Positions 2,959 to 31,129 of a DNA stretch of 31,129 nucleotides are shown piece after piece (the first letter of the stretch is position 1; each line of letters starts with the position of its first letter). The notes under the pieces were generated by a model, which saw nothing but the letters and a program-made list of their open reading frames with translations, searched no databases and was not told where the DNA came from. Source of the DNA: an uncultured delta proteobacterium (GTDB taxonomy: Bacteria > Myxococcota > Myxococcia > Myxococcales > Anaeromyxobacteraceae); NCBI GenBank assembly GCA_963766715.1, contig CAVYBH010000004.1, positions 1 through 31,129 of the forward strand. Direction: 5' to 3'. Both the position numbers and the translations under genes were made by a program.

Positions 2959-2965
2959 GGTCGGC

Positions 2966-5302: not shown

Positions 5303-5320
5303 GATCGGGGGCGAGCGGCC

Positions 5321-7760: not shown

Positions 7761-7762
7761 TC

Positions 7763-8411
7763 ATGCTGAAGAGGATCGCGAACCAGGTGCTCGACGCGCT
7801 GTCGGCGCTTGCTGGCCGGGCTGACGTCCCTGCGGCTCCTGCACCTCAAGAACCGGGTGATCGACCGCGCCTACAGCCGCGTGGTGAAGCGCTCGCTCGG
7901 GCAGGCCGGCGACCAGTTCTCGATCATGTACCCGGCCGACATCCTGGGCGAGAAGTACATCCGCGTCGGGAGGAACTTCAGCGCCTTCCGGCGGCTGCGG
8001 ATCGAGGCGTACGACACGCATCTCGGGCACGCCTACCAGCCGTCGATCGTCATCGGCGACGACGTCAGCATCAACTTCGACTGCCACATCGGGTGCGTGA
8101 ACCGGATCGTCATCGGGAACGGCGTCCTGATGGCGAGCAAGATCTTCATCACCGACCACATGCACGGCGAGGTGACCGCGGAGGCGCTCGCGACGCCGCC
8201 CTCGGCCCGCCGGGTGGTCTCGCCGGGACCGGTGATCATCGGCGACAACGTCTGGATCGGCGAGGGCGTGTGCATCATGCCCAACGTGACCATCGGGAAG
8301 AACGCCATCATCGGCGCGAACGCGGTGGTGACGACCTCCATCCCGGAGAACGCGGTGGCGGTGGGCGTCCCGGCCCGGGTGATCAAGGTGCTGGGACGGG
8401 AGCCCCCTTGA
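7763..8411 (+). CDS. Hexapeptide-repeat (LbH) O-acetyltransferase
   Basis: 'IVIGDDVSINFDCHIGCVNRIVIGNGVLMASKIFITDH', 'VIIGDNVWIGEGVCIMPNVTIGKNAIIGANAVVT..VGVPARVIK'. Frameshift near 7810. Confidence 0.9.
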
Positions 8412-10681: not shown

Positions 10682-10718
10682 CGGACGATGCTACACACGT
10701 AGCTCTCGCCGGGAAACC

Positions 10719-12681: not shown

Positions 12682-12715
12682 AGCGATGTACATTGGGATG
12701 GTCACCCCGGCGTAC

Positions 12716-12745
12716 GTTTCCTGTCATTCTTGAGGGTTCGTACAG
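12716..12745 (+). promoter_or_regulatory. Degenerate copy of bipartite motif (GTTTCCT-N16-CGTACAG) upstream of wbpM
   Basis: Same 16-nt spacing as the copies at 16093, 17044 and 30704, in an AT-rich intergenic stretch. SD-like GGAGGG just before ATG 12787. Confidence 0.5.
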
Positions 12746-12786
12746 TCTCATCTGTAGATTCACGGGGTTAGCCGGAAGGGGAGGGG

Positions 12787-14695
12787 ATGGCGTACGTCCA
12801 GGGGAAGGAGACGGGCCGCTTCGCGGCCTTGTTGACCTTCGACGCCATGGCGACGACGGCGGCGCTCTTCCTCGCTGGCCGCGCTTCGCTTCGACGGCAA
12901 CACGCCGCCCGAATGGGCGCACGTCCTGTTCGACGCCCTGCCGGTCCTCGTCGGCGCGCGGCTGGTCACCTTGTGGCTCGCCCGGATGCACCGCTGGTCG
13001 TTCTACCTGTCCGGGCTCGAGGAGGGGCTTCGCCTGGGCGCGGCCACCCTGGGCGGGACGCTGCTCTTCTCCGCCATCTGGTACGTGGGGCTCCGGAGCT
13101 GGCTGCCGGTCTCCATCGTCATCCTCGAGCTCTTCATCACCTCGTTCTTCCTCGCCGCGATCCGCTACGTCCCGCGCATCGCCACCACCACCATCCGCGA
13201 GCGCTTCGACGAGGGGTACCAGCGGACGCTCATCGTGGGGGCGGGCAGCGCCGGCGACCTGCTGCTGCGCGACCTGCGCCGCTCCCCCGAGAAGAAGATC
13301 AAGGTGGTGGGGTTCGTCGACGACAACCCGCGCAAGCACAAGATGACGCTGGGCGGGAAGCCCATCCTGGGCGGCATCGAGCACCTGCCCGAGATCATCC
13401 GGCGCTACCGGGCCTCGCTCGTGATGCTCGCCATCATGGAGCTGCCCGCCGAGCGGGTCCGCCACATCCTCGACACCTGCGCCGCCTCCAAGGTGAAGTT
13501 CAAGATCATCCCCGCGTCCTTCACGCAGATGGACGAGCGGATGAGCGCGGCCATGCTCCACGACCTGCAGCCGGAGGACCTGCTGCCGCGCGTGGCGGTC
13601 GACTTCGACGCCCAGGAGATTGACTCGCTCGTCCGCGGCCGGCGCATCCTCGTCACCGGGGGCGCCGGCTCCATCGGCAGCGAGATCGCCCGGCAGGCCG
13701 TCCTGCACGGTGCGTCCCAGGTGGTTCTCGTCGACATGAACGAGAACGAGCTCTACTTCCTCTCCCGCCGGCTCAAGGCCCACCAGAACGTCACCAAGAT
13801 CCGGGCCGAGGTGGCCGACGTGCGGGAGCCCGGCCGGCTGCTCGCCCTCGGGAAGCGCTACCGCCCCCAGCTGGTCTTCCACGCCGCGGCGCACAAGCAC
13901 GTGCCGCTCATGGAGGACGCGCCCGAGGAGGCGGTGAAGAACAACGTCTTCGGGACGATCAACGCCGCCCGCATGGCCGACGCGGTCGGCGCCGAGCGCT
14001 TCGTGCTCATCTCCACCGACAAGGCGGTCCGCCCCAGCTCGGTGATGGGCGTGACGAAGCGCATCGCCGAGCTGGTGGTGCGCGACATGGGCCGGCAGAG
14101 CCGCACCCGCATGCTGGCGGTGCGCTTCGGCAACGTGCTCGGGTCGGCCGGCAGCGTGGTCCCCCTCTTCAAGCAGCAGATCGAGGCCGGCGGCCCGGTC
14201 ACGGTCACGCACCCCGAGTGCACCCGGTACTTCATGACCATCCCGGAGGCCGTGGGGCTGGTGCTGATCTCGGCGCTCGGGGACAACGGGGAGCTGTGCG
14301 TGCTGGAGATGGGAGAGCCGGTCCGCATCGCCGACCTGGCCGCGCACCTCATCACCATGGCCGGCTTCGTCCCCAACGTGGAGATCGCCATCACCTACAC
14401 CGGGCTGCGCCCCGGGGAGAAGCTGCACGAGGAGCTCATGACCGAGGAGGAGGAGCGCACCCGCAGGGTCCGCAACCGCATCCTCTCGGCCGAGAGCCCG
14501 CCCCCGCCGCAAGATCTGAGGGAGCGGCTGGCCGAGCTTCGCCGGCTCGCCGACGCGGGCGACACCGACGGGCTCCTGCGCGCCATGAAGGTCCTCGTGC
14601 CCACCTTCGAGCCCCAGGGGCTCCATGGACGCGGCCAGGAGGCCGAGCGGCGCGAGGTCTCCGAGATCTTCCCGGTGCCGCCGGCCCGGGCCTAG
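12787..14695 (+). CDS. wbpM: Membrane-bound UDP-GlcNAc 4,6-dehydratase (WbpM/CapD/PglF family)
   Basis: N-terminal TM helices, 'TLIVGAGSAG' domain, 'ILVTGGAGSIGSEIARQ', 'FHAAAHKHVPLME', 'ISTDKAVRPSSVMGVTKR', 'VRFGNVLGSAGSVVPLF', 'GLRPGEKLHEEL'. One frameshift near 12880. Confidence 0.95.
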
Positions 14696-14707
14696 CCCCG
14701 GCCTGGC

Positions 14708-16040
14708 CTAGCGCCGGTAGTAGCGGCGCAGCAGGAACGCCGTCCAGGGCAGCCCCACGAGCAGCGTGACCAGCATGTAGAGGAACATCGTCAGGAGCAC
14801 GCCGCGCGGGGTGGCGAGCACCACGATGGACCCGGTCAGCACCGCGCCCACGATGGACGGCGGCGAGCATGGGCTCCTCCTTGTGGGCGCGCATGAAGGT
14901 GGCCGCGGCGAAGACCAGGCTGTTCGCGACCGTGACGGCCGCCAGGCAGGCCAGCACCGGGAGGTCGGCGAGCCGGCCGGCGATGGGGGAGCCGATCCAG
15001 CGCAGGAACCCGGCGCCGGCGAGCGCGGCGAGCGAGGCGGACAGCACGAAGGCGAAGGAGCGCGCGGTCGCGCCCAGGAAGGTCCGGCGAAGCGTCTTCC
15101 GGTCTCCCGCCCCGACCAGCGCGGCGAAGGTGGGCCCCTTCGCGTAGACCCAGCTCATCCCGAGGGTCTGGATCGAGTTGAAGAGGGCGAAGGCCAGGCC
15201 CACGCGACCGGCCTCGACGGCGCCGTGGTAGGCGAAGATCATCGGCGTGAAGAGGTAGAAGATGAAGTAGCCGCTCACCCAGCTGAGGCCGATCCGCCAC
15301 TGGAGGGGGAGGATCTCGGCGCGCCAGGAGATCCGCTCGGTTCCGGGGGCCGCGCCGCGCCGCACCAGCCCGGCGAGCGCCCGGTTGTGGGCCCCAGCCA
15401 CCAGGCCGTGGCGGCGACGCTCACCGCCGGGAGGACGGGCAGGCTCCAGAGCCCTCCGCCGAGCGCCAGGATGGCCCACATGATCGCGTACCCGACGAGC
15501 CGAGGCGCCGGCCCGCAGCCGCGCCACCTGCCCCACGTTCCCCAGCCCCTCGGTGACCGCCAGCAGCGGGCTGAAGTAGAAGGTGGCCGCCGACGCGAGC
15601 ACGAGGAGCAGCCACGGCCCCGCCCAGGCGCGCAGCGGGAGGTCGCCGCTCCGGGAGAAGAAGAAGAGGCCCGCCACGCCGACCCCGACGAAGAAGAGGA
15701 CGGCGGCGATCCGGTACCAGCGCCGCAGCAGGGAGACGAGCGAGGCCAGCCGATCGAGGTGCCGGGCCTCCCCCTGGAGCGTCCCGTCCTCGGCGCGGGA
15801 GAGGTGGGCCACCTCGTGCCCCGCCAGCTGGGTGACCACGAAGTTCAGCCCCAGCTCGAAGAAGATGTTGAGGGCGATGAGGCTGGAGAAGGTGAAGTAG
15901 TAGCCCTGCTCCACCTTCGAGAGCCAGAAGGGGAGCAGCAGCACCATCACCACGCCGGCCAGGATCTGCCAGGTGCGCAGGACCAGGGTGGTGAGGACGT
16001 GGAAGTCGAGGCCGGCGGCGCGGCGCACGCGGGTCAGCAT
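14708..16040 (-). CDS. wzx: O-unit flippase Wzx
   Basis: Multi-TM protein with 'EQGYYFTFSSLIALNIFFELGL', 'WRAEILPLQWRIGLSWVSGYFIF', 'GAVEAGRVG', 'FMRAHKEEP'. Frameshifts near 15510, 15390 and 14860. Stop TAG at 14708-14710. Confidence 0.85.
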
Positions 16041-16092
16041 GGGCTTCCGCCCGGAAGGTAGCACGGCGAGGTCGGGCCCAGGCGAGCGAGTC

Positions 16093-16129: not shown

Positions 16130-17024
16130 ATGAGCGAAAGCTGCGTCGCCTGCGGCTCTGCGGACCTGCTGCGCTACCCGGCTCGCGTCGCGCCCTTCCT
16201 GGCGGGCCGGGTGCCGGGGCTCGCCTCCGCCAGGGCCGAGCTGGCCCGCTGCCGGGCCTGCGGGCTCGCCTTCTACCTCCCGCGGCTCGCGGACGCCGAG
16301 CTGGCCGCCGTGTACCGCGGCTACAGGGACGACGACTACCAGCGGGAGCGGCAGCGGCACGAGCCGGGCTACACCCCGGAGCGGAACGCGGCCGTAGGCA
16401 AGGGCGCGCCGGAGGTGACGAACCGGAACGCCAACGTCGAGCAGACGCTGGCGCGCCACCTGGACCTGGCCGCGGTTCGAAGCGTCCTCGACTACGGGGG
16501 GGATCACGGCCAGTTCATCCCGCCCGGGCTCGGCGCGGCGCGCCGGGTGGTCTACGAGATCTCCGGCGTCCCGGCCCACGACGGGGCCGTGGCCGTCGCC
16601 AATTGGGAGGAGGCGGCCCGGGAGCGCTACGACGTCGTGCTCTGCAACCACGTGCTCGAGCACGTGCCGTACCCGGCCCGGCTGGTGGAGCAGGTCCTCG
16701 GCGTGGCCCACCCGGGAAGCTGGCTCTACTTCGAGGTCCCCTTCGAGTGGCCGTTCCGGGTGGATCCCGGGGCGGGCTGGAAGCAGCGCGCCTACCAGGC
16801 GGGGCTGCGGAGCCAGGCGCTCGCGCAGCCTGTACTTCGGCCTGACCGGCCGCTCCCCCTTCCTCCTGCACGAGCACGTGAACCTGTTCTGCGTGGAGGC
16901 CCTGCGGGCGCTGCTCGAGCGGTGCGGTCTCGCAGGTGGCCGAGATCGGCGAGCGGGAGATCGACGTGGGGTGGACGCGGATTCGGGCGTGGTCTCCGCG
17001 CTGGCGCGACCGGCCGGCGGATAA
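16130..17024 (+). CDS. Class I SAM-dependent methyltransferase with N-terminal CxxC...CxxC zinc-binding motif
   Basis: 'CVACG..CRACGLAF', 'VLDYGGDHG', 'YDVVLCNHVLEHVPYP', 'LYFEVP', 'HEHVNLF'. Frameshifts at about 16830-16990; likely stop TAA 17022-17024. Confidence 0.8.
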
Positions 17025-17082: not shown

Positions 17083-17865
17083 GTGAAAGCCGTCATCCTC
17101 TGCGGTGGGCAGGGCACCCGGATCCGGGACGCCAGCGAGGCCATTCCCAAGCCGATGCTGCCCATCGGCGGCAAGCCCATCGTCTGGCACATCATGAAGT
17201 CCTACGCCCACCACGGCGTGAAGGAGTTCGTGCTGTGCCTGGGCTACAAGAGCTGGCTCATCAAGGAGTTCTTCCTCAACTACCGCCCCATGACCACCGA
17301 CGTGACGGTCACGCTCGGTCGGCACGACTCGGTCGAGTTCCACGGCCGGCACGGCGAGGAGGACTGGAAGGTCACGCTCGCCGAGACCGGCGAGGACACC
17401 ATGACCGGCGGGCGCGTGGCCGCGGTGCGCCGCTACGTCGAGGGGGACGAGCCCTTCCTGCTCACCTACGGCGACGGCGTGTCCGACCTCGACGTCACCC
17501 GCCTCGTCCAGTTCCACCGCTCCCACGGCAGGGTGGCCACCGTGACCGCGGTGCGCCCGCCCGGCCGCTTCGGCGAGATGCGCATCGACGGCGAGCAGGT
17601 GACCGAGTTCAACGAGAAGCCGCAGGCCACCGAGGGGTTCATCAACGGCGGGTTCTTCGTCCTCGACGGCCGGAAGGTCTGGGACTACGTGGGCACGAGC
17701 CCCGCGACCCTGCTCGAGCGCGAGCCCATGCAGCGGCTCGCCGCCGCCTCGCAGCTGCTCGCCTTCCGGCACACCGGCTTCTGGCAGCCCATGGACACGC
17801 TGCGTGAATACACGCTGCTGAACGACCTGTGGGCGAGCGGGAAGGCGCCCTGGAAGACCTGGTGA
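17083..17865 (+). CDS. rfbF: Glucose-1-phosphate cytidylyltransferase
   Basis: '[32 protein letters not shown]', 'TMTGGRV', 'LTYGDGVSD', 'INGGFFV', '[22 protein letters not shown]'. Frame intact. Confidence 0.97.
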
Positions 17866-18972
17866 TGGCCGCACCCACCCGCCAGGACCTCGCCGGCGCC
17901 TACGCCGGCAAGCGGGTCTTCCTCACCGGCCACACCGGGTTCAAGGGGGGCTGGCTGGCGCTGTGGCTGCGCGACCTGGGCGCCGACGTCCACGGCTACG
18001 CGCTCGCGCCCGATCCCGATCCGGTGCTCTTCCACGCCGCCGGCGTCGAGGAGGCCGTCCACCACCGGGTCGGCGACGTGCGGGATCCGGCCGCGCTGCG
18101 GGCGGCGCTCGACCTGGCCCGCCCCGACCTCGTCTTCCACCTGGCGGCGCAGCCGCTGGTGCGGGAGAGCTACGCCGCGCCGGTGCCCACCGTCGAGACC
18201 AACGTCCTCGGGACGGTGCACCTGCTCGAGGCCATCCGGCTCGCCCGGCGCCCCTGCGCGGTGGTGGTGGTGACGAGCGACAAGGCCTACGAGAACCGGG
18301 AGCGGCACGAGGGGTACGGCGAGGACGAGGCCATGGGCGGCCACGACCTGTACTCCGCGTCGAAGGGGGCCGCCGAGGTGCTCACCTCCGCGTACCGCCG
18401 CAGCTTCTTCGCTCCCGCGCGCCTCGCCGAGCACGGCGTGGCGCTCGCCACCGCCCGGGCCGGGAACGTGGTGGGCGGGGGCGACTGGGCGAAGGACCGC
18501 ATCGTCCCGGACGCCGTCGCCGCGCTCGCGGCCGGCCGTCCCGTCCCCGTGCGCAACCCGTCGTCGGTCCGCCCCTGGCAGCACGTGCTCGAGCCGCTCT
18601 CCGGCTACCTGCTCCTGGGCGCGCGCCTGGCCGGCGCCGGCGGCGGCGCCTTCGCCGAGGGCTGGAACTTCGGCCCGCGCGACGAGGACGCCGTGCCCGG
18701 TGCGCGACCTGGTGACGAAGCTCATCGCGGCCTGGGGCAGCGGGTCCTGGGAGGACCGGAGCGACCCCGCCGCGCCGCACGAGGCGGCCTTCCTGCGGCT
18801 GCGCATCGAGAAGGCCCGGGACCGCCTGGGCTGGGCGCCGCGCTGGGACGTCGCGGAGGCCATGCGCCGCACCGCCGCGTGGTACCGGGCCTTCCACGCC
18901 GGCGCCGCGCCCGCGGCCATGCGCGCCCTCACGCTCGCCCAGATCCACGACTACGAGGGAGCCACCGCGTGA
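17865..18972 (+). CDS. rfbG: CDP-glucose 4,6-dehydratase
   Basis: '[16 protein letters not shown]', '[13 protein letters not shown]', 'TSDKAYEN', 'YSASK', '[19 protein letters not shown]', '[14 protein letters not shown]', 'WNFGP', 'PHEAAFL'. Frameshift near 18697. Confidence 0.96.
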
Positions 18973-20335
18973 CCGACCGGAAGGCCAAGGAGCGCCGGCT
19001 CACCGGCGAGATCGTCGAGGGGATGCGGGCGCTGGCCCGGCTGCGCGCCGAGGCGGAGCAGGAGCCGTTCGTCCCCGGCCAGACCCCGGTCCGCTACGCC
19101 GGCCGGGTCTACGGCGAGGAGGAGATGGCGAACCTGGCCGAGGCCTCGGCCGAGTTCTGGCTCACCGCCGGGCGCTGGCACCGGCGGCTGGAAACGGAGC
19201 TGGCCGACTGGTACGGCGTGAAGCACGCACGGCTCGTGAACTCCGGATCGTCGGCGAACCTGCTCGCGGTGGCCGCGCTCACCAGCCACCAGCTGGGCGA
19301 CCGGCGCCTCTCGCCGGGCGACGAGGTCATCACCGTGGCGGCCGGGTTCCCCACCACGGTCGCTCCCCTCGTCCAGCACGGCCTCGTGCCGGTGTTCGTG
19401 GACGTGAAGGTCGCCACCGGCAACGCCGACGTCGTCGCTGCTCGAGGCGGCCCGCTCCCCGCGGACGCGCGCGGTGATGATGGCCCACACGCTGGGCAAC
19501 CCCTTCGACCTCGGCGCCGTGAAGGCCTTCTGCGACCGGCACGACCTGTGGCTCGTCGAGGACAACTGCGACGCCGCCGGCTCGCTCTACCAGGGGAGGA
19601 AGACCGGCACCTTCGGCCACCTGGCCACGCTCTCCTTCTACCCGCCGCACCACATGACCACCGGCGAGGGCGGCGCCGTGCTCACGAGCGACGGCAAGCT
19701 GCTCCGCGCGCTGGAGAGCCTCCGCGACTGGGGGCGCGACTGCTGGTGCCAGTCGGGCGTGGACAACACCTGCGGCAAGCGCTTCGAGTGGCAGCTGGGC
19801 GAGCTGCCCGACGGCTACGACCACAAGTACGTGTACAGCCACCTCGGCTACAACTTGAAGATGACCGACCTGCAGGCGGCGGTCGGGGTGGCCCAGCTGG
19901 CCCGGCTCGGCGAGTTCGCGGCGGCGCGCCGGCGCAACTGGGCCTTCTTCCGCGAGGCCCTCGCCGGCCTCGCAGGACGTGCTCGAGCTGCCCGAGGCCA
20001 CGCCCGGCTCCGACCCCAGCTGGTTCGGCTTCCTGGTGGCGGTGCGCCCGGGGGCGCCCGTGCACGCCGCGACGACGCTGGTGCGCAAGCTCGAGGAGCG
20101 GAAGATCCAGACCCGCATGCTCTTCGCCGGCAACCTCGTCCGCCAGCCCGCGCTCACCGTGCTGGCCGCGCAGGCCCGCGCCGCCGGGACGCCCGTGCCG
20201 TTCCGGGTGTCCGGCTCGCTCGACGGGACCGACGCGGTCATGAACCGGTCCATGTGGGTGGGCGTCTATCCGGGACTCACCGAGCCGATGCGCGACTGGG
20301 TGGCCCGTTCCTTCCGGGAGATCTGCAGCCCATGA
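18969..20335 (+). CDS. rfbH: CDP-4-keto-6-deoxy-D-glucose 3-dehydrase (E1, PMP/[2Fe-2S])
   Basis: '[11 protein letters not shown]', 'AGFPTTV', 'AHTLGNPF', 'EDNCDA', '[14 protein letters not shown]' (His in place of the aminotransferase Lys), '[14 protein letters not shown]' (Fe-S ligands), '[16 protein letters not shown]'. Frameshifts near 19435 and 19975. Confidence 0.95.
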
Positions 20336-22133
20336 GCAAGATCCGCGTGGCCGACTACGTGGCCCGGCGCCTGGCCGCGCTGGGCGTGGACACGAGCTTC
20401 CTGGTGACCGGCGGGGGCGCCATGCACCTGAACGACGCCATCGGCGGCACGCCCGCGCTCCGCAAGATCTACTGCCACCAGGAGCAGGGCGCGGCCATCG
20501 CCGCGGAGGGCTACGCGCGGATCGCCGGCAAGCCGGCGCTCGTGAACGTCACGGCCGGTCCGGGCGGCATCAACGCGCTGAACGGGGTCTTCGGCGCCTA
20601 CACCGACTCGATCCCCATGGTGGTGGTCTCCGGCCAGGTGAAGCGGGAGACGCTGCCGCACCTTCAACCCGGTTCCCGGGCTCCGGCAGCTGGGCGACCA
20701 GGAGGTGGCCATCACCGAGATGGCCCGGCCCGTCACCAAGTGGGTGGGCCAGCCCGGCGCGCCCGAGGAGGTCCCGGCGCTGCTCGACGAGGCCTGGGCC
20801 GCCGCGGTGGGGGGCCGGCCCGGGCCCGGCCTGGCTCGACGTGCCCATCGACATCCAGGGCGCCTCGATCGAGGCCGACCCCGAGCTGGGCGGCAAGACC
20901 ATCCCGCTGCCGGCCGCGAAGGCGCCGCCCCCGGGATCGGTGGAGGCGGTGCTCGACGCGCTCGCCGCGGCCCGCCGTCCGGTGATCCTGGCCGGGACCG
21001 GCGTCCGCATCGCCGGCGCCATCGACGCCTTCCGCGAGGTGGTCGACCTGCTCGGCGTCCCCGTCACCACCGCCTGGACCCACGACATCCTGGACGACGA
21101 CCACCCGCTCTACGCCGGCCGGCCCGGGGACCATCGGCACGCGCGCCGGGAACTTCGCGTCCAGCACGCCGACCTGGTGCTGGTGCTGGGGTCGCGCCTC
21201 AACATCCGGCAGGTCAGCTACAACTGGGACTCGCTTCGCCCGCGGCGCCCGCAAGATCCAGGTGGACGTGGATCCGGCCGAGCTGCGCAAGCCGTTCCCG
21301 CGCCCCGACCTGGCCATCGAGGCCCACCTGGCGCCCTTCCTCGCCGAGCTGGCCGCCGGCGCGCGCGCCCGGGGCTGGAAGCCGCGCCACGCCCGCTGGG
21401 TGGCGTGGTGCCAGGACATCCGCGCCCGCTACACGCCCCGGAGCGCCGACTACCCGGTCTCGGCCGGCGCCGTGAATCCGTACCACTTCATCGAGGGGCT
21501 CTTCGAGCGGCTCGCGCCCGGCGACATCATCGCCTGCGGCGACGCCACCGCCACCATCGTCCCTTCCAGATCGGGCGGATGAAGCCGGGCATGCGCCTCT
21601 TCAGCAACTCGGGCTGCGCCTCGATGGGCTACGACCTGCCCGCCGCGGTGGGCGCCGCGGTGGCCAGCCCCGGCGTCGCGGGTCATCTGCCTGGCCGGCG
21701 ACGGCAGCGTGATGATGAACATCCAGGAGCTGCAGACCTTCAAGACCATCGCCTGCCGGTGAAGGTCTTCGTCCTCGACAACGAGGGCTACCTCTCCATC
21801 AAGCAGACGCAGCGCAACTTCTTCGGGCGGGAGTCGGGCACGTCCCCCGACTGCGGCCTCGAGTTCCCCGACTTCCGCGCGGTGGGCGCCGCCTTCGGCC
21901 TGCAGTCGATCCGGCTCACCCGCGACGGCTGGCGCGCCGAGGTGGAGGCCTTCCTGGCCCGCCCCGGGCCCGGCCTGTGCGCCGTGCCGCTCGACCAGAC
22001 CAGGAATTCATGCCGCGCCTCAAGTCCCGGATGGTGGACGGCGTCATCCGCACGCCCGAGCTCGAGGACATGTTCCCGTTCCTGGAGCGCGCGCGAGCTC
22101 GACCGCGTGCGCGACTCCGCCCTCGCCATCTGA
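20332..22133 (+). CDS. ThDP-dependent acetolactate-synthase-like carboligase (YerE-like)
   Basis: ATGA-coupled to rfbH. '[12 protein letters not shown]', '[15 protein letters not shown]', '[16 protein letters not shown]', '[13 protein letters not shown]', ThDP motif '[23 protein letters not shown]', C-terminal '[10 protein letters not shown]'. Multiple frameshifts. Confidence 0.88.
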
Positions 22134-22166
22134 CCCCGTACCCGTCCCTCGCAGGAGGAAGCGATC

Positions 22167-23270
22167 ATGATCAGCCAGGCCGACCGCGACGTCTTCGAGA
22201 ACCTCTTCATCCTGGAGGTGGCCAACAACCACTGGGGCAGCGTCGAGCGCGGGCTCAAGATCATCCGCGATCACGCCACGGTGGTCCGCTACAACAACGT
22301 CCGCGCCGCCATCAAGCTGCAGTTCCGCGACGTGGACGGCTTCATCCACCCCGATTTCAAGGGGAGCCAGGACCTCCGCTACATCAAGAAGACCGAGGCC
22401 ACCAAGCTCTCCCGCGAGGACTTCGCGCGGCTGGTGCAGGAGATCCGGAGCTCGGCTGCATCCCGATGGCCACGCCGTTCGACGAGGCGTCGGTCGACCT
22501 GTGCGTCGAGTTCGACTTGCCCATCATCAAGGTGGCGAGCTCGGACCTGAACGACTGGCTGCTGCTCGAGAAGATCGCCTCGACGCGGCGCCCGGTCATC
22601 GTCTCCACCGGCGGGGCCTCGGAGAAGGACCTGGACGACCTGGTGAAGCTTCTTCGAGCGGCGCCACATCCCGCTGGCGGTGAACCACTGCGTCTCGCTC
22701 TACCCGTCGGAGGACGACGAGCTGGAGCTGAACCAGATCGACTACCTGCGGCGCCGCTACCCGGACCACGTCATCGGGCTGTCGACGCACGAGTACCACG
22801 ACTGGCACTCCTCGATGCTGATCAGCTACGCAAGGGCGCGCGCACCTGGGAGCGCCACGTGGACATCGAGGCACGACGGCAAGGAGGTCTCCTCCTACTG
22901 CTCGCTCCCGGAGCAGACCGACGGCTGGTTCAAGGCCTTCCACAAGGCCCGCGGAGATGTGCGGCGGCTCGGGCGACTCCCAGCGCGTGGTCACCCGCAA
23001 GGAGACCGAGTACCTCGACGCGCTGGTCCGCGGCGTCTACGCGAGGCGCGACCTGGGACGGACTACGTGTTCTCCAGCGACACCTTCGACAGGGACTTCT
23101 ACCTGGCCATCCCGCTGCAGAAGGGGCAGCTCTCCTGCCGGGAGGTGATGAACGGCGAGAAGCTCGTCCTCGCCATCCAGGCCAACGAGCCGCTCACCAT
23201 CAACCACATCGACGGCCCGTACAACGAGAACGCCACCCTGCGGTCGCTCATCCTGGCCCGCGGGATATGA
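22167..23270 (+). CDS. NeuB/SpsE-family PEP-dependent ulosonate synthase with C-terminal SAF-like domain
   Basis: SD GGAGG. 'ILEVANNHWG', 'AIKLQFRD', 'ATPFDEASVD', 'IKVASSD', 'PVIVSTGG', 'HCVSLYP', 'IGLSTHE', 'ERH', 'RGVYARRDL'. Multiple frameshifts. Confidence 0.88.
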
Positions 23271-23274
23271 GGCG

Positions 23275-24398
23275 TCAGCCCGGGATGGCGTAGAGGACGC
23301 TGTCGAAGCCCTGGTGGGCGTGGCTCCGGAGGTAGAACCGGTAGCCCAGGTCCCAGCTCGCGAGCAGCCGGGGGATCGACCAGACGTGCTGGGGGCGTGG
23401 TAGACGCACATCGCCAGTCCGGGGCGGGTGGCGGTGATGGTCTTCCGGGCGCCCAGGAGCGCGTCCTCCTCGGCCCCCTCGATGTCCATCTTGATCAGGT
23501 TGGGGCGGAAGCCGTGCAGGCTCTCGTCGAGGGAGACGCACTGGATGGTGACCGAGCCGTCGGCGGAGATGGCGGAGCCCGCGCCGTCGCCCGCCGAGAA
23601 GCGGACCTGGGCGGTCGAACCGAGGACGCCGCAGGGCACCGCGAAGGCGTCGGTCTCCGGGAACTCCGCCAGGCACTCGACCAGCCGGGCGAAGTTGGCC
23701 GGGTCGGGCTCGAAGGCGGCCACCGCCTCGACGCGGAGCGCCGCGCCGCCGCGCGGCCAGCAGCGTGTCGCCGGCGTAGGCGCCGGCGTCGACCAGGCGG
23801 AGGGGCGCGCCCCAGGGCGGGAGGTCGCCCGGGAAGTACTGGTCCTCGAGGGTGTTGTGGTCGGCGGGGCGGGCAAAGGCCACCTCGCCCCCGATCCGGT
23901 AGCGCCAGAGGTCGAGGTAGACGCGGCGGCTCTTCTCGTCGGCAGAACAGCTCGGGCGTCTCCAGGATCTCGTCCCGGCTGCCGAGGTAGGCGGGGAGCG
24001 CGGCAAGCCAGTAGCGGGTTCGGGGGGCCGGAGCGTCGAGAGGCGGTGGTAGGCCTCGACGGGCGTCAGCACCTCCCGAAAGCCGGCCGTCGCGGAGCCC
24101 CTTCACGATGGGGCCGATGTCCACCATCGGGTTGAAGACCCCGATCACCGCGGTGAGGCCGCCCCCGAGCGCGCCGGCCTCGGAGGGCGGCACCACCTTC
24201 CAGGGAAGTCGCTCGGGCGGCGACTGGTCGACGAAGGCGTGCACCCGGCGGCCGGCCCGCTCGAGCAGCTCGCCCAGGCCGCGGCCGAACTGGCCCGCGC
24301 CGTAGACCACCACGTCCCGGGGAACCGCCCCGGGCGAGGCCGGCGCCCCAATCGAGCAGCTCGGCGAGTGAAGCGCGAAGGGCGGCGGGCTCGGTCAT
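23275..24398 (-). CDS. FkbM-family methyltransferase with N-terminal Rossmann-like segment
   Basis: 'VVVYGAGQFG', 'EDQYFP', 'VDAGAYAGDT', 'AFEPDPANF', 'LIKMDIEGAEEDALLGA', 'LAMCVYH', 'FYLRSH..SVLYA'. Multiple frameshifts. Confidence 0.85.
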
Positions 24399-24451
24399 GG
24401 GCGGGGAATCCTTGGAGGACGAGGCCGAGAGAGTATATTCCAGGAGTCCAC

Positions 24452-25336
24452 ATGCCCATGCGCGTCCTCGTCACCGGATCGAGCGGCTTCATCGGACGGA
24501 ACCTCGTCGAGAGCCTCTCCCGGGACCACGTGGTGCTCGCCCCCCGCCACGCCGAGCTCGACCTGCAGGACGGCGACGGCCGTGGCCCGCTACCTCGAGG
24601 CCGCCCGGGTGGACGCGGTGGTCCACTCGGCCACCAAGCCCGGCCACCGCAACGCCCGGGACCCGTCCGGCCTGGTGGAGGCGAACACGCGCATGTTCGC
24701 CAACCTGACGCGGCGCCCGGCGCTCTGCGGCCGGGTGGTGCTGCTCACCTCGGGCTCGTCTACGACCCGCGCTTCTACGAGCCGAAGATGCGCGAGGAGT
24801 ACCTCGGCGAGCACATCCCGGCCGACGAGGGAGGGTACTCGAAGTACCTGTGCGCCCGCCTCGCCGAGGGGGTTCCAGGCGCCGTCGAGCTGCGCCCGTT
24901 CGGCGTCTTCGGTCCGCACGAGGACTGGGAGATCCGCTTCATCTCGAACGCCATCTGCAAGTGCCTCCACGACCTGCCCATCACGCTGCGCCAGGATCGC
25001 CGCTTCGACTACGTCTGGGTGGACGACCTCACCGAGGTGATCCGGCGCGCGCTCGGCGGGGAGCTGCCAGCCGGCGCCTACAACGTGACCCCCGACGAGG
25101 CGATGCCGCTCCGGGTGCTCGCCGAGAAGGTCCGGCGCGCCTCGGGGAAGGACGTGGAGATCCAGGTGGCCCAGCCGGGAATGGGAGTGGAGTACAGCGG
25201 CTCGAACGAGCGGCTGCGCCGGGCGCTGCCCGGCCTCGCCTTCACGGATGTCGACGAGGCCATCGGGAGGCTGTATCGGTGGTACGAGGCGAGGCGCGGC
25301 CAGGTGAGGCGCGAGGCGCTCCTCTCCGACAAGTGA
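24452..25336 (+). CDS. NAD-dependent epimerase/reductase (extended SDR, candidate YerF-like reductase)
   Basis: 'RVLVTGSSGFIGRNL', 'ELDL', YxxxK 'YSKY' region ('GGYSKYLC'), 'LRPFGVFGP', 'FDYVWVDDL'. TATATT and AGGAG upstream. Frameshifts near 24578 and 24752. The YerF role is inferred from context only. Confidence 0.8.
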   Translation: MPMRVLVTGSSGFIGRNLVESLSRDHVVLAPRHAELDLQDGDGRGPLPRGRPGGRGGPLGHQARPPQRPGPVRPGGGEHAHVRQPDAAPGALRPGGAAHLGLVYDPRFYEPKMREEYLGEHIPADEGGYSKYLCARLAEGVPGAVELRPFGVFGPHEDWEIRFISNAICKCLHDLPITLRQDRRFDYVWVDDLTEVIRRALGGELPAGAYNVTPDEAMPLRVLAEKVRRASGKDVEIQVAQPGMGVEYSGSNERLRRALPGLAFTDVDEAIGRLYRWYEARRGQVRREALLSDK

Positions 25337-25366
25337 CGAGCGGCGCCCCGGCGGCGCGGAGGCGGC

Positions 25367-26349
25367 ATGTCCCGGAAGACCCTGACCATCCTCACCCCCT
25401 GCTACAACGAGGAGGACAACGTGGCGGAGCTGGTCCGCCGCGTTCGCGAGGTCATGGCCGGCCTTCCCGCCTACGACTACGAGCACCTCTTCGTCGACAA
25501 CCGGTCCACGCGATCGCACGGTGGAGAAGGTGAAGGGGTTCGCGGCCACCGACCGGCGCATCAAGCTCATCGTGAACGTCCGCAACTTCGGCCACATCCG
25601 CTCGCCGTACCACGGCCTGCTCCAGGCGCGGGGCGACGCGGTGGTGGCCATGGCGTCCGACCTCCAGGACCCGCCCGAGCTCATCCCCCAGTTCGTGCGC
25701 AAGTGGGAGGAGGGGTTCCCGGTGGTGGTGGGCGTGAAGACCGCCAGCCAGGAGAGCTGGCTCGTCTACAACCTGCGCGGCCTCTACTACAGGACGCTGA
25801 AGCGCTACGCGAGCGTGGAGCTGCTCGAGCACTTCACCGGCTTCGGCCTCTACGACCGGAAGGTGGTGGAGGTGCTGCGATCGCTGCGCGAGCCGTACCC
25901 GTACTTCCGCGGCCTGATCTCGGACCTGGGGTTCGACATGGCCCGGATCGAGTTCACGCAGCCGCTGCGCAAGCACGGGAAGACGAAGGCCAACTTCCCG
26001 GTCCTGCTCGACATGGCGCTCCTCAGGACTCACGAACCACACCAAGGTCCCGCTCCGGCTGGCCACGCTCATCGGCTTCGTGGCCGCCATGTTCTTCCTG
26101 CTCGCCGGCGTGGCCTACCTGGTGGCGAAGCTCCTCTTCTGGAACACCTTCACGGCGGGCACGGTGCCGGCCATGATCGGGATCTTCTTCCTGGGCTCGA
26201 TCCAGCTGCTCTTCCTGGGGCTCATCGGCGAGTACGTGGGGACCATCTTCACCTACGTGCAGGGGCGGCCGCTCGTCATCGAGCGGGAGCGGGTGAACTT
26301 CGACGACGACGCAGGGGGCGGCGGGGAAGGGCCCGGATCCCCGGGATGA
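25367..26349 (+). CDS. GT2 polyprenyl-phosphate glycosyltransferase (GtrB/DPM-synthase-like)
   Basis: 'LTILTPCYNEEDNV', 'FVDNRST', 'RNFGHIRS', 'SDLQDPPELI', 'YFRGLISDLGF', two C-terminal TM helices, 'LGLIGEYVG..RPLVIERERVNF'. Frameshifts near 25510 and 26025. Confidence 0.9.
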
Positions 26350-26766
26350 GCGGGACGCTCGCCAGGCTGCGCGAGCACCGGCTGTGGCAGCCGGTGAGCT
26401 ACCTGGCCGTGGGCGGGTGGAACACGCTCTTCGGGGTGGGGCTCTTCACGCTCGCCTACCGCTGGCTGGGCGCCTCGGTGAACTACCTCGCCCTGCTCGC
26501 CGCGTGCAACGTGCTCGCCATCACCAACGCCTTCCTCTGCTACAAGCTGCTCGGTCTTCCGCACCCGCGGGGACTGGCTGCGCGAGTACGCGCGCTTCTG
26601 GGGCGTGTACGGGGCGTCGTCGCTCGTGGGGTTCGGGCTGGTGGCGCTGCTCGTCCAGGCGGCGGGGATGTCGCCGGTGACGGCCAACTTCCTGGCGACC
26701 GGGGTGGTGGTGGCCGCCGGCTTCGCCGGGCACAAGTGGATCTCCTTCGGGGGGAAGAAGGCATGA
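26346..26766 (+). CDS. GtrA-family flippase-like membrane protein
   Basis: About 140 aa with 4 TM helices: 'YLAVGGWNTLFG', 'NAFLCYKL.VFR', 'GHKWISF'. ATGA-coupled on both sides; frameshift near 26550. Confidence 0.85.
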
Positions 26767-27526
26767 GCCGCGTCGAGATGGTGCGAACGTCGAGGATCCC
26801 CTGGCTCGAGGTGGCGAGAGCCGTCACGCCTCCGTTCCTCTGGCAGGCGCTCTACCGGCGAGTTCGTGGTGCGCGACATCCCTGACGCCTGGAAGGTACC
26901 GGCTGTTCTACTCGCCCTGGCTCGAGCCCGGGTTCGCGGCCCTCCACGAGCAGGTTCGCCCGTTCACGCTCTGCCCGATCGCGAGCTGCTGGACGCTCCA
27001 CAACATGCTGCTCCAGGCCCTGAACGCGCCCGGCGACGTGGTGGGGGACAGGCGGTGTCTTCCAGGGCGGGACGGCGCTCCTGCTCAAGAAGACGATGGG
27101 ACCCGGAGGGCGGAGGACGGAGGCTCCGCCTCTTCGACTCCTTCGAGGGAATGGCGTCCGCCACCCAGGGGCTCGACCGCCACCGGGCGGGCGACTTCGC
27201 CGACACCTCGCTGGAAGGCGTGAAGCGCGTGGTGGGGATGGAGCCCTTCATCGACTACCGGAAGGGCTGGATCCCGGAGACCTTCGCCGGGCTCGAGGAG
27301 GCGCGCTTCTGCTTCGCGCACGTGGATCTCGACCTCCACCAGAGCATCCTCGACTCGCTCGCGTTCCTCTACCCGCGGCTGTCGCTGGGTGGCGTCCTCG
27401 GTGTTCGACGACTACGGGTACGCGTCGTGCCCGGGCGCCCGGAGGGCCGTGGAGGACTTCTTCGCCGGCAAGCCGGAGCGGCCGCTGGCCCTCCAGACTG
27501 GACAGGCGCTGGTGGTCAAGGTGTGA
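26763..27526 (+). CDS. TylF/MycF/NovP-family sugar O-methyltransferase
   Basis: '[10 protein letters not shown]', '[12 protein letters not shown]', 'KGWIPETF', '[11 protein letters not shown]', '[22 protein letters not shown]', '[10 protein letters not shown]'. Several frameshifts. Confidence 0.85.
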
Positions 27527-28525
27527 GGGAGGTGCGGTACCACTCCGCCGCCGCGCCAGCCCGTCGGCCACCGTGACCTCGGGCTCGTATCCCGAGCAGC
27601 GTCCGCGCCCGCGAGACGTCGGCCAGCGAGTGCCTCACGTCGCCGGCTCGCGCCTCCCGGTGCATCGGCCGCACCGTCGCCGCCTCCGGCCGGAAGCGCG
27701 CCACCTGCGCGCGGATCCCCTCGAAGAGCTGGAGCAAGCGTCGTCCGGTCGCCCACCGCCACGTTGTAGACCTTGCCCAGGGCCTCCGGGTTCGTCGTGG
27801 TCGCCGCGAGCAGGTTCGCCTGGACGACGTTGTCCACGTAGCAGAAGTCGCGGCTCGTCTCCCCGTCGCCGTTCACGAAGACGGGCTTCCCCGTCGAGCA
27901 GGCTCTGGAACCAGAGCGGGATGACGGCGGCGTACGGGCCGTTCGGGTCCTGCCGGGGCCCGAAGACGTTGAAGTAGCGCAGCCCGAGCAGCTCGAGCCC
28001 GTAGGCCTGGCCGAAGGCGTGGGCGTAGAGCTCGTCGGCGTACTTGGTCACCGCGTACGGGGAGAGCTGGCGGCCCACGAGGTCCTCCACCTTCGGCAGG
28101 CCCGGGTGGTCGCCGTAGACCGAGCTGGAGCTGGCGTAGACGACGCGGCGGACGCCCGCCTCCCGTGCAGCCCAGAGGACGTTCAGGAAGCCGGTGACGT
28201 TCGCGGCGTGGGTGGCGAGCGGATCCTCGATGGACCGCGGAACGCTCCCCAGCGCGGCCTGGTGGAGGATCAGGTCGACGCCCTTGGCCGCGCGCCGGCA
28301 GGTGTCCAGGTCCCGGATGTCTCCCTCGACGAGCTCGAGACCGGGACTCGTGTCCTCGGGAGGCCTCGTCGAGGTTGCTCCGGTGGCCGGTGACGAAGCT
28401 GTCGAGGACGCGGACTCGCTGGCCCAGGCCGAGGAGCGTCTCCACGAGGTGGGAGCCGATGAAGCCGGCGCCGCCCGTGACGAGCCAGGTGCGGCGCGAC
28501 GGCCGGAATGCGCGGAGAGGTTCAG
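27516..28525 (-). CDS. wbpP: UDP-GlcNAc(A) C4-epimerase (WbpP/TviC-like)
   Basis: '[16 protein letters not shown]', '[12 protein letters not shown]', '[19 protein letters not shown]', 'SPYAVTKY', '[22 protein letters not shown]', '[12 protein letters not shown]', 'GDVRHSLAD'. Start codon not identified (approximate); several frameshifts. Confidence 0.9.
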
Positions 28526-28537
28526 CGGACCCGAGGC

Positions 28538-29864
28538 CTAGGCCTTCACGATGCGCGGTCCGCCGCCGCGACGGGAAGAGGGGCGCCACGATGTTGCGCG
28601 TGTCCACCACCAGCTTCGCGCTCCGGTAGAGCGAGGCGTCCTTGAAGGGCTCGTGGGCGGTGGCCACGAGCACCGCGTCGTACTTGCCGAAGGTGTCGGC
28701 GTCGCACGGGACGGTCTTCAGGCCCACGTCCACCTTGCGCCCCTTGCGCGCCTCCGGGAAGAACGGGTCGCAGTAGTCCACGATCGCGCCCGACTCGCGG
28801 AGGAGCTCGATGATCTCGTAGGAGGGCGACTCGCGGTCGTCGTCGATGTTGGCCTTGTAGGCGAGCCCGAGCACGAGGACCTTCGAGCCCTTGATGGGCT
28901 TCGAGTCGTCGTTCAGCGCGTGCGGCGACCTTCGCCACCACCCACCGGGGCATGCTGGTGTTGATCTCGCCCGCCAGCTCCACGAAGCGCGCCCACTGCC
29001 CGTGCTCGGCCGCCTTCCAGGAGAGGTAGAAGGGGTCGAGCGGGATGCAGTGACCGCCCAGGCCCGGGCCCGGGTAGAAGGGCATGAAGCCGAAGGGCTT
29101 CGTCTTGGCGGCCTCGATGACCTCCCAGACGTCGATGTCCATCCGGTCGAAGACGGTCTTCAGCTCGTTCACGAGCGCGATGTTCACCGAACGGAAGACG
29201 TTCTCGAGGAGCTTGGCCGACTCGGCCACCCGCGCGCGACGAGACCGGCACCACCTTGGCGACGCCGGTCCGGTAGAGGGCCACGGCCAGCTCGGTGGAG
29301 TCGGCGTCCACCCCGCCCACGACCTTGGCGGTGGTCTTCGTGTCGAAGTCCTTGCGGCCCGGGTCCTCGCGCTCGGGCGAGAAGGCGAGGAAGAAGTCGC
29401 GCCGGCACTTGAGGCCGCTCGTCTCCAGGATGGGGAGGAGCTCCTCGTCGGTGGTGCCCGGGTAGGTGGTCGACTCGAGGATGCACCAGCTGACCCTTGC
29501 GGAGCCGCTTCGCGATCTCCCGCCCGGTGGCGTGGATGTAGGAGTTGTCCGGCTCGCGGTGGTCGCCCAGCGGCGTGGGCACGCAGATGGCGATGGCGTC
29601 GCAGTCGCGCAGCCCCTCGAAGTCGGTGGTGGCCTGGTACTTGCCGCTCCTCACCGCGGCGGCGACCCGCTCGGCCCCGATGTGCTTGATGAAGGACTCG
29701 CCCTTGCGGAGCGCCTCCACCTTGCGGGGGTCGAGGTCGAAGCCGGTGACCCGGAAGCCCGCCTCGTGGAAGAGGAGGGCCAGGGGGAGGCCGACGTAGC
29801 CCTGGCCGATGATGCCGATGCGGGCGCTGCGGTCGTGGATCCGGGCGAGAAGTCCGTTCTTCAT
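28538..29864 (-). CDS. wbpA: UDP-N-acetylhexosamine 6-dehydrogenase (WbpA-like nucleotide-sugar dehydrogenase)
   Basis: '[11 protein letters not shown]', 'CVPTPL', 'ESTTYPGTT', 'FSPEREDPG', '[17 protein letters not shown]', catalytic '[17 protein letters not shown]', '[15 protein letters not shown]', 'VVDTRN'. Stop TAG 28538-28540; several frameshifts. Confidence 0.9.
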
Positions 29865-29892
29865 GTGGGCGGATTGTAGGGCGAAACGGGGG

Positions 29893-30590
29893 TCAGAGGT
29901 TCAGCGAGCCCTTCAGGCCCACCTGGAACCAGCCGTGGAAGGAACGGGACGAGAGGTCGACCGCGCCGCCATACCCCTTCGCTGCCCCGCCGGCGAATAT
30001 GTTCGAGTAGATCCCGCCGACGTAACCGACGTAGGGGCCGAGGGCGAAGGCCCTCCCCAGGGCGAAGTCGAGCCCGGTCTGGACGTTCACGACCTCCCAG
30101 CCGCTCCAGGTCACGCCGCTCGACTGGGTGGCGGTGTCGACCGAGTAGTGCGTCCACTCCCATCCCGTACCAAAGCTGAACCAGGGTCGGAGGGGGCCGT
30201 CCGGGAGGAAGCCGTAGACGAGCTCGAGACCAGTGCGCATGTCGTAGCCGGTGCAACTCGCGCCCGAGGTGCAGGTGGCGGAGGCCACGAAGGCGGGGGC
30301 GTACTGGAAGTACACGCCCAGGGAGATGTTCGGGGTGACGAGATAGCGCGCCGCCAGCTCGACCGGGATCGCCCCGGACCAGGCTCCCGACATGGGGACG
30401 GCGCCGCCGGTGGCGACGCTGGCGTTCTCGGCGTTTCCGACGGGAATCGCGTACCCGGCCTTGAAGTCAAGGGCCACCTGGGCATTTGCCGGGTGGCCAA
30501 CGAGGATGGCCGCGGACGCCCCCGCCGATGGACCGCCCCGACCCGGACACGCTCCACGAAAAGGCGAAGGTCCCGAAACCACCGGGTCAC
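29893..30590 (-). CDS. Small outer-membrane beta-barrel protein (OmpA/OmpW-like membrane domain)
   Basis: Signal-like 'AAILVGHPANA|QVALDFKAGY', alternating aromatic beta-strands ('ISLGVYFQY', 'PWFSFGTGWEW', 'FALGPYVGY'), C-terminal strand 'HGWFQVGLKGSLNL', Cys pair CTSGASC. Start uncertain (GTG 30590 with a frameshift, or in frame upstream). Confidence 0.7.
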
Positions 30591-30703
30591 CGCGTGTTCT
30601 GGAGCTTTGCACGACGGTGACCCCGGTCGCGCGCTGCATCCATCCGGGACAAAGACCCACCCCGGCACGTGTCTTGCAGAGCCTCCCGGTTCATGCCCGG
30701 ACG

Positions 30704-30733
30704 CTTTACTTGCCTCGATCCGCGGACGTACAA
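30704..30733 (+). promoter_or_regulatory. Bipartite motif CTTTACT-N16-CGTACAA (putative promoter of wzb)
   Basis: CTTTACT at 30704-30710 and CGTAC at 30727-30731, 14 nt before ATG 30746. Preceded by ATGCCCGGA. Confidence 0.65.
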
Positions 30734-30745
30734 GAATCGACCCCT

Positions 30746-31129
30746 ATGTTCCAGAGGATCCTCGTCGTCTGCGTGGGCAACATCTGCCGGAGCCCCATGG
30801 CGGAGGCGCTTCTCCGGGCGCGCCTCGGCCATCGGCCCCGGTTCGACGTGTCGTCCGCGGGCGTCTCGGCGCTGGTGGGGCACCCGGCCGACGAGTCGGC
30901 GGTGGGCCTCATGAGGGAGCGCGGCCTCGACATCTCCAGCCACCGGGCCCGGCAGCTCACCCCGCAGGTCGCCGCCGAGGCCGACCTCATCCTGGTCATG
31001 GAATCGGGGCACGAGCGGGCGGTCTACTCCATCGCCCCCCAGGCCCGGGGCAAGGTGCACCGCATCGGCCGGTTCGGCCACTTCGACGTGCCCGACCCGT
31101 ACAGGCTTCCTCGCGCCGCCTTCCTGGAC
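30746..31129 (+). CDS. wzb: Low-molecular-weight protein-tyrosine phosphatase (3' truncated; absent from the ORF track)
   Basis: Translated by hand: MFQRILVVCVGNICRSPMAEALL..VSSAGVSALVGHPAD..DISSHRARQL..ADLILVME..DVPDPY. It has the C(x)5RS P-loop and the DPY loop. Confidence 0.93.
   Translation, partial: MFQRILVVCVGNICRSPMAEALLRARLGHRPRFDVSSAGVSALVGHPADESAVGLMRERGLDISSHRARQLTPQVAAEADLILVMESGHERAVYSIAPQARGKVHRIGRFGHFDVPDPYRLPRAAFLD

Follow-up and report, generated by a model that had tools for sequence, protein, structure and literature searches.

The synthesis of CDP-4-keto-3,6-dideoxyglucose by enzymes of the RfbF, RfbG and RfbH families is well established. In the yersiniose A pathway (YerE/YerF) this acceptor is extended at C4 by the thiamine diphosphate (ThDP) dependent enzyme YerE and the product is then reduced. 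YerE uses pyruvate, and the pathway has no gene for making a donor. Here we analyzed a cassette which combines genes for the same acceptor, and for the same kind of ThDP ligation and a putative reduction, with a NeuB-like synthase. It is located on a stretch of 31,129 nucleotides, here called the window (GCA_963766715.1, contig CAVYBH010000004.1, positions 1 to 31,129), of an uncultured delta proteobacterium of the Anaeromyxobacteraceae. It corresponds to contig C4 of a bin with 85% completeness; C1, C2, C8 and C12 are further contigs of the same bin. The product of the cassette is probably a CDP-3,6-dideoxyhexose whose C4 carries a long hydroxylated branch, for which the NeuB-type enzyme would provide the donor. 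A lipid carrier would then take up this sugar for the assembly of a surface polysaccharide.

A unifying scheme comprises erwiniose (ErwE/F/I/J), caryophyllose (MMAR_2331/2332), gastriose (MyGE/MygI/MygF) and ropiose (Steitz 2022, available text of PMC9306805). For the first three sugars a 3-deoxy-2-oxoacid donor is made in an aldol reaction, ligated at C4 by a ThDP enzyme and the product reduced. Our cassette shares with this scheme the genes for CDP-4-keto-3,6-dideoxyglucose, a YerE-like ThDP enzyme, a candidate reductase, a glycosyltransferase and a neighbouring, putative donor-making enzyme of the aldol type; a methyltransferase is also found in the R. palustris cluster of the scheme. However, the donor enzymes described there are pyruvate aldolases (BphI-like or of the aldolase/citrate lyase family), whereas the window encodes a protein of the NeuB fold with residues of a phosphoenolpyruvate (PEP) site.

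The caryophyllose sub-cluster of the lipooligosaccharide locus of M. marinum comprises, according to the accessible part of PMC12395582, MMAR_2329 (3-dehydroquinate synthase (DHQS) family), 2330 (short-chain dehydrogenase), 2331 (aldolase/citrate lyase), 2332 (ThDP enzyme), 2333 (GT2), 2334 (rfbF), 2335 (rfbH) and 2336 (rfbG). Compared with MMAR_2329-2336 by annotation only, the window shares the ThDP, GT2, rfbF, rfbH and rfbG genes, but it has NeuB instead of the aldolase, carries an FkbM gene and lacks the pair of DHQS-like and short-chain dehydrogenase/reductase (SDR) genes. By the same comparison a second cassette, on C1, additionally shares the DHQS-family and SDR genes and again has NeuB for the aldolase.

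More than 200 YerE-like clusters, most of them without a known sugar, are reported in a review whose available text does not contain the terms 'NeuB', 'sialic' or 'neuraminate' (PMC12247030). Likewise, 'synthase' and 'neuraminate' are absent from the accessible supplement text of PMC9306805, and 'thiamine' and 'branched' from the available part of a paper on NeuB phylogeny (PMC8208679). The accessible parts of PMC12531865 and PMC13354803 added nothing on a NeuB-ThDP pairing. No paper in the literature searched joined NeuB with YerE-like branching; Krug 2024 (YerE-like clusters) and Lanza 2024 (JanthE) may cover the pairing. The type of pathway is already published, and only the NeuB-type donor enzyme, which is widespread and apparently undescribed, would be new.

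Genes were called by a codon-model read and by family scans (TIGR, NF and Pfam profiles). A search with the first piece of the NeuB-like protein yielded 3454 relatives, and 104 of the 120 listed were 367 or 369 amino acids in length. The genome loci analyzed were the best 80 of 510 confirmed stretches with a NeuB of this clade and belonged to Pseudomonadota, Actinomycetota, Myxococcota, Cyanobacteriota, Thermodesulfobacteriota and Planctomycetota. L129 duplicates a counted locus and was left out of the counts. As controls, 22 loci with a NeuB outside the clade were taken from the phylum of the bin.

The ThDP gene was present in 70 of the 80 genome loci, rfbH in 65, rfbG and rfbF in 57 each and the commoner type of SDR in 48. 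FkbM genes were found in 45, HAD phosphatases in 35, GT2 in 29 and DHQS-like genes in 8 loci. The genes neuA and neuC occurred once each (1/80), both in L067 beside a second neuB of the canonical type. None of the 22 controls carried the ThDP gene or rfbH; neuA was present in 19 and neuC in 8 of them. NeuB and ThDP genes were at most 200 bp apart in 43 of 70 loci, and 48 of the 51 loci of at least 18 kb contained the ThDP gene. After collapsing at 80% identity the counts were 65/75 for ThDP and 1/75 for neuA. Viral clade loci (IMG/VR contigs, L244-L303) gave a similar picture with ThDP in 58/60 and neuA in 0/60, compared to 0/19 for ThDP and 18/19 for a weak neuA-like match, recorded at a lower threshold, in other viral NeuB loci; rfbF was present in 0/60 of the viral clade loci. 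Among the 40 matches listed of 138 plasmid records no clade member was found, the best match reaching about 28% identity. Thus, in the test of co-occurrence suggested by the initial annotation, the clade tracks ThDP and rfbH and not neuA or neuC.

The NeuB-like proteins also differ from known synthases of this family. The intact clade member P0001 scored 100.5 bits against TIGR03569 (cut-off 399.65) and 97.1 bits against TIGR03586 (cut-off 340.25). The nearest solved protein was 3g8r, an uncharacterised protein of C. violaceum (E 1.8e-72 versus 1e-22 for NeuB), with both NeuB and PseI far behind, and an AlphaFold model of mediocre quality (predicted local distance difference test score 66), used for the fold only, showed the NeuB-type fold. 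A quick IQ-TREE analysis was made of 72 rows, none of which had been identified as LegI or SpsE. Here, the 42 clade rows formed one group with 99% support in the Shimodaira-Hasegawa-like approximate likelihood ratio test (100% when two sister rows were included), and a long branch divided clade and sisters from 5 NeuB, 17 PseI and 6 other rows. The phylogeny, which had been proposed as a further check, therefore sets the clade apart from NeuB and PseI, in line with the low profile scores.

Fold and PEP/metal residues are shared with the nonulosonate synthases NeuB, PseI and LegI, whereas the clade stands on a separate branch, has the sugar-site Asp and Arg replaced and is not linked to neuA or neuC. 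Thirteen positions (E17, K50, Q52, T103, F105, K122, S125, S147, Y179, S206, H208, E229 and H231), which we take to be the PEP/metal-binding site of NeuB, were kept in 158-159 of 159 clade proteins. Additionally, the clade conserves R54, R71, Y72 and K75, which were gained in the loop after strand 2. Since the PEP/metal site is kept, the Asp and Arg of NeuB/PseI are replaced and the four loop residues are gained, it seems that the enzyme can bind PEP but is built for a different aldose, probably a phosphorylated one. The same loop has been tied to the use of phosphorylated sugars in human NANS (available part of PMC8208679).

The ThDP product of the window contains the GDG motif and the Glu of HQEQ in the catalytic Glu region. 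An intact homologue in L046, with 62.6% identity to the read-through of the window gene, had its best PDB match with 8rph (367 bits), followed by acetohydroxyacid synthase (AHAS, 239 bits) and 5ahk (231 bits); we take 8rph to be JanthE and 5ahk to be PpYerE. In this respect, too, the system differs from that of yersiniose A. The ThDP enzyme stayed below every AHAS cut-off and an ilvB-like gene is located separately on C12. Judged from these comparisons, the gene encodes a YerE-like enzyme of the decarboxylase family and not the housekeeping AHAS. In L052 (11105-14020) a single open reading frame (ORF) of 972 amino acids encodes a ThDP enzyme fused to a PglD_N and FkbM protein.

A further sample of 80 metagenome loci was chosen by the DHQS-like partner, with NeuB not being a criterion; 33 of these also carried a ThDP gene. 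Here, the clade NeuB was found in 13 loci (one partial), an HpcH/citrate-lyase aldolase in 5 and an HMGL/BphI-like aldolase in 6. None of the three was present in 9 loci, mostly short contigs, and two together in no locus. Both aldolase types are those named for caryophyllose and erwiniose in the available text of PMC9306805. In L183, L195, L222 and L235 the donor slot is filled by an HMGL-like aldolase of 536-541 amino acids with an extra C-terminal part. With two small profiles, no HpcH- or HMGL-type aldolase was matched in the bin. Because of the mutual exclusion within cassettes and of the C1 gene set matching that of M. marinum, the NeuB clade seems to behave as a non-homologous replacement of the aldolase, the M. 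marinum side resting on annotation only.

The C1 cassette consists of ThDP, SDR, DHQS-like, clade NeuB, rfbFGH, a second SDR and GT2. The housekeeping aroB is located separately on C8. The DHQS-like partner of the clade retains the active-site columns of DHQS. DHQS-like and FkbM genes did not overlap among the 8 and 45 of 80 genome loci, nor among the 31 and 10 of 60 viral loci, respectively. On the tree the DHQS-linked and FkbM-linked NeuBs were intermixed (10 changes; the DHQS share is inflated by locus selection), which suggests one NeuB product for both.

The C1 region from about 254 to 291 kb (L136, L137) parallels the window: five blocks are shared at a DNA identity of 85-96%, compared to 80% for NeuB, 79% for GT2/GtrA and 69% for ThDP. 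DHQS-like and SDR genes with the commoner reductase are found on C1, FkbM and an SDR lacking the catalytic Tyr in the window. Both are parallel versions of one polysaccharide locus, stemming either from two co-binned strains or from a duplication. Since C4 and C1 may represent two strains, cross-feeding between them is not assumed.

Taken together, the linkage to ThDP and rfbH, the rarity of neuA and the exclusivity towards aldolases support the proposal of the initial annotation that the NeuB-like product is a long 2-oxoacid donor. Two outcomes named there as refuting it, a grouping with true nonulosonate synthases and a cognate CMP-synthetase, were seen neither in the tree nor in the bin, respectively. 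We regard the donor role of the enzyme as quite likely and the explanation as a whole as likely.

The following pathway is the best explanation. RfbF, RfbG and RfbH would provide CDP-4-keto-3,6-dideoxyglucose, with the E3 component coming from elsewhere. The NeuB-like enzyme would join PEP to a small aldose that is not acetylated and most likely carries a phosphate, such as erythrose 4-phosphate, yielding a 3-deoxy-2-ulosonate. The ThDP enzyme would decarboxylate this ulosonate and join the acyl unit to C4, as is established for YerE and ErwE, and the SDR would reduce the resulting C1' ketone. FkbM, TylF and the upstream methyltransferase might O-methylate the product. From their family function, GT2 and GtrA would load and flip the sugar. 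In the case of ErwE, 4-hydroxy-2-oxopentanoate is used on a ketone analogue (PMC9306805, available text).

For erythrose 4-phosphate as the aldose the chances are about even. It is favoured because the active-site columns of the DHQS-like partner suit a heptulosonate 7-phosphate. Enzymes of the NeuB family presumably form the new hydroxyl with the configuration of Neu5Ac, opposite to that in the 7-phosphate of 3-deoxy-D-arabino-heptulosonate (DAHP) and in 3-deoxy-D-manno-octulosonate (Kdo). On D-erythrose 4-phosphate this selectivity would give the D-ribo configuration, and the resulting 3-deoxy-D-ribo-heptulosonate 7-phosphate would lead to the carbon skeleton of caryophyllose. The branch of caryophyllose is a D-altro-1,3,4,5-tetrahydroxyhexyl group of six carbons with a methyl end (available part of PMC5706390), so a 3,7-dideoxy-D-ribo-heptulosonate donor would be needed. 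In the DHQS cassettes the methyl end might arise by phosphate elimination through the DHQS paralogue and reduction by the SDR. Since the window contains FkbM and lacks the DHQS-like/SDR pair, its branch, expected to have six carbons, probably keeps the terminal oxygen, either free or methylated. A carbocycle formed by the DHQS-like protein was rejected; it is irrelevant to the window, where the gene is absent, and less likely for C1 because the side chain of caryophyllose is acyclic.

Several observations weigh against this pathway. To our knowledge, neither an activity nor a sugar structure is known for any member of the clade. No gene for an E3/DdhD reductase was found in the window, and one candidate query of the bin, made with no positive control, was also negative. 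HAD phosphatases, frequent in the genome loci, are absent from the window, so dephosphorylation would have to take place elsewhere. The ThDP gene was missing in 10 of 80 loci, including 3 of the 51 loci of at least 18 kb, and L058 and L133 hold none of the core genes. As the loci are related, Fisher values for the linkage are overstated. The aldolase profiles were built from 4 and 6 sequences and may miss members; an HpcH aldolase was present in 1 of 159 clade NeuB loci (L267), and DHQS and FkbM occurred together in L187 and L170. At position 241 the clade has V/I and at position 315 I/V, where 22/22 NeuB/PseI proteins have Asp (PD motif) and Arg (RPG motif), respectively. Arg314 of N. meningitidis NeuB is essential for catalysis according to a title cited in the available part of PMC8208679. 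JanthE, the closest solved enzyme to our ThDP protein, can also use pyruvate, and what it acts on physiologically is described as unknown (available text of PMC12188165).

The weakest step of the scheme is the reduction. In the SDR of the window the catalytic Tyr of the canonical YxxxK motif is missing; among its homologues Tyr was found in 0 of the 108 that matched the motif (T, H, G, A or S instead), while 11 of 119 were unmatched. This type of SDR takes the place of the commoner one in L028, L030 and L033, and we consider it a candidate for the C1' ketone reductase.

The same coupling could operate with a longer or unphosphorylated aldose (a free pentose or the 5-phosphate of ribose or arabinose) and would then lead to a gastriose-type branch of C7 or more. 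This is unlikely: DHQS-type chemistry presumably requires a terminal phosphate on the heptulosonate and the partner keeps the DHQS columns; the window NeuB shares 80% DNA identity with the DHQS-linked C1 copy; and gene calls and family scans revealed no isomerase or kinase gene in the window. The six-carbon, methyl-ended branch of caryophyllose (PMC5706390) argues in the same direction. Such a donor would be favoured by an FGGY kinase that in several loci accompanies the DHQS genes and might make a different aldose phosphate available, by the lack of a DHQS-like gene in the window to fix the chain length and by the range of MyGE, which takes C3 to C8 donors (available text of PMC9306805).

The initial annotation had termed the NeuB gene an orphan. 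In the bin, both CTP_transf_3 matches above 30 bits were of the KdsB type, the PF02350 pieces tested were of the WecB type, and NeuA and NeuC profiles built from the control loci found nothing further. The sole other NeuB of the bin is the same-clade member on C1; 'NeuB' matches on C8 were rejected, being read as DAHP synthases. Within a bin of 85% completeness the term therefore holds, as no cognate CMP-synthetase was found. The second kdsB, on C2 (28.8-31.8 kb, L007), lies beside genes for an iron-containing alcohol dehydrogenase and a DegT aminotransferase, an arrangement which presumably resembles that of 8-amino-Kdo genes. In the sister group of the clade, L125 (9120-11462) carries a NeuB (543 amino acid frame) directly followed by a neuA-like gene, without a ThDP neighbour.

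These findings bear on whether two products are made instead, the ThDP enzyme forming yersiniose from pyruvate and an enzyme encoded at another site, for example a KdsB paralogue, activating the NeuB ulosonic acid with CMP for the same glycan. The two KdsB-type genes, the incompleteness of the bin, the neuA-like neighbour in L125 and the acceptance of pyruvate by JanthE (PMC12188165, available text) are consistent with this. It is nevertheless quite improbable in view of the near absence of neuA from genome and viral clade loci as compared to other viral NeuBs, the mutual exclusion with those aldolases which, in the published scheme, supply the ThDP enzymes, and the putative amino-Kdo setting of the second kdsB.

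The read-through of 11 genes contained 35 frame breaks, all of one or two bases, and no in-frame stop; rfbF was the sole gene of the cassette without a break. GC content at third codon positions (GC3) was about 0.95 throughout. The density of shifts was 4.4 per 3 kb on the window contig, compared to 1.5 across 162 genome blocks, and shifts of the same sort were found all over the bin. Near-identical short-read contigs of four other runs (32 pieces shown) had gaps in the break-holding spans and none in six break-free spans, and some of them span the junctions rfbH-ThDP, ThDP-NeuB, NeuB-FkbM and FkbM-SDR. Since these gaps coincide with the break-holding spans, the breaks fit assembly error, judged by spans and not break by break. 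No clade member was present in the 13 genomes of the same genus searched, hence no intact close relative is at hand. Among the runs listed, no RNA sequencing run held the locus, and the best share of a DNA run was 0.27.

That the cassette is decaying and its product no longer made is very unlikely: the breaks at about three times the genome-wide density, the parallel C1 locus that could render it redundant and the lack of the clade in the genus would fit decay, but the absence of in-frame stops, the GC3 near 0.95, the size of the breaks, the bin-wide shifts and the gaps of the short-read contigs speak against it.

Table 1. Genes of the cassette in the window, with supporting profiles, frame breaks and homologues in the 80 genome loci
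Gene or product	Position	Strand	Support and remarks
Class I SAM methyltransferase, just upstream of rfbF	16130..17024 (end approximate)	+	PF13489; 2 breaks; 26 homologous ORFs in 80 loci
rfbF/ddhA, glucose-1-phosphate cytidylyltransferase	17083..17865	+	TIGR02623, 356.5 bits (cut-off 300); intact
rfbG/ddhB, CDP-glucose 4,6-dehydratase	17865..18972	+	TIGR02622, 383 bits on first piece; 1 break near 18696
rfbH/ddhC, E1 3-dehydrase	18969..20335	+	NF011936 in three pieces, profile 4-434 of 440; 2 breaks
ThDP-dependent carboligase, JanthE/YerE-like	20332..22133	+	Pfam TPP N/M/C; 8 breaks
NeuB-family synthase of separate clade	22167..23270	+	PF03102; 6 breaks; 88.6% identity to intact P0001 over 370 columns
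PglD_N-like and FkbM methyltransferase	23275..24398	-	TIGR01444 over cut-off; 6 breaks; 44% identical to L010 member
Extended SDR, candidate side-chain reductase	24452..25336	+	PF01370; 2 compensating breaks
GT2, GtrB/PgfS-like polyprenyl-phosphate glycosyltransferase	25367..26349	+	PF00535, NF047588, below cut-off; 2 breaks; family in 29/80 loci
GtrA-type membrane protein	26346..26766	+	PF04138; 1 break; in 21/80 loci
TylF-type O-methyltransferase	26763..27530 (end approximate)	+	PF05711; 5 breaks; 9 homologues in 80 loci

The order of the genes is given in Table 1. Stop and start codons overlap at rfbF/rfbG (TGATG), rfbG/rfbH (GTGA) and rfbH/ThDP (ATGA), which confirms the translational coupling of rfbF-rfbG-rfbH to the ThDP gene described initially; ATGA overlaps are also present at GT2/GtrA and GtrA/TylF. 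The rfbH product contains PPHHMT and CWC-x6-TC, which we take to be motifs of the RfbH/E1-type enzyme. NeuB was said to follow the ThDP gene directly and to be followed by the SDR. The first part is correct, with the NeuB start 33 nt past the ThDP stop on the same strand and an AGGAGG site; the second is not, as the PglD_N and FkbM gene lies in between on the minus strand, and a shared NeuB-SDR transcript can therefore not be assumed. The GtrB/GtrA pair after the SDR was found as described. Besides the FkbM gene, the initial gene list had omitted the TylF-type and class I methyltransferases at both edges.

The flanks (1-16070 and 27700-31129) contain SLBB and Wzz-type export genes, several glycosyltransferases, a hexapeptide acetyltransferase, a GT4, a WbpM-like dehydratase, a Wzx-like flippase, a UDP-sugar dehydrogenase and epimerase and a low-molecular-weight protein tyrosine phosphatase. 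The surroundings of the cassette read as a Wzx/Wzy polysaccharide locus. Elsewhere the module is located beside fliC and large glycosyltransferases (L015, L016, L017, L021, L025, L034, L079, L081 and L087), suggesting that it serves to glycosylate flagellin in the Pseudomonas, Acidovorax, Azonexus and Azovibrio records concerned.

A more far-reaching and tentative interpretation, which we hold somewhat less likely than its opposite, is that the clade represents an unrecognised alpha-carboxyketose synthase of the NeuB fold, which would join PEP and erythrose 4-phosphate with C4 opposite to that of DAHP synthase, solely for the ThDP donor. The DHQS paralogue would then be a terminal deoxygenase, and not a cyclase, acting with the SDR, and the swappable DHQS and SDR genes, FkbM and HAD would set the chain end. 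If true, this would account for the methyl terminus of caryophyllose as well as for the presence of DHQS-family and SDR genes in the M. marinum locus, and a family of undescribed branched sugars would extend over several phyla and into phages.

If the clade feeds the ThDP enzyme, thousands of proteins annotated as N-acetylneuraminate synthase or SpsE (the 3454 matches) would be mis-annotated, and predictions of sialic acids from NeuB counts would be inflated. The module offers a direct and cheap test of the origin of the caryophyllose side chain. Furthermore, it draws attention to PEP-dependent synthases and carboligases for long donors that would be new to biocatalysis, and branched sugars not yet described are predicted for flagellins, O-antigens and glycans encoded by phages.

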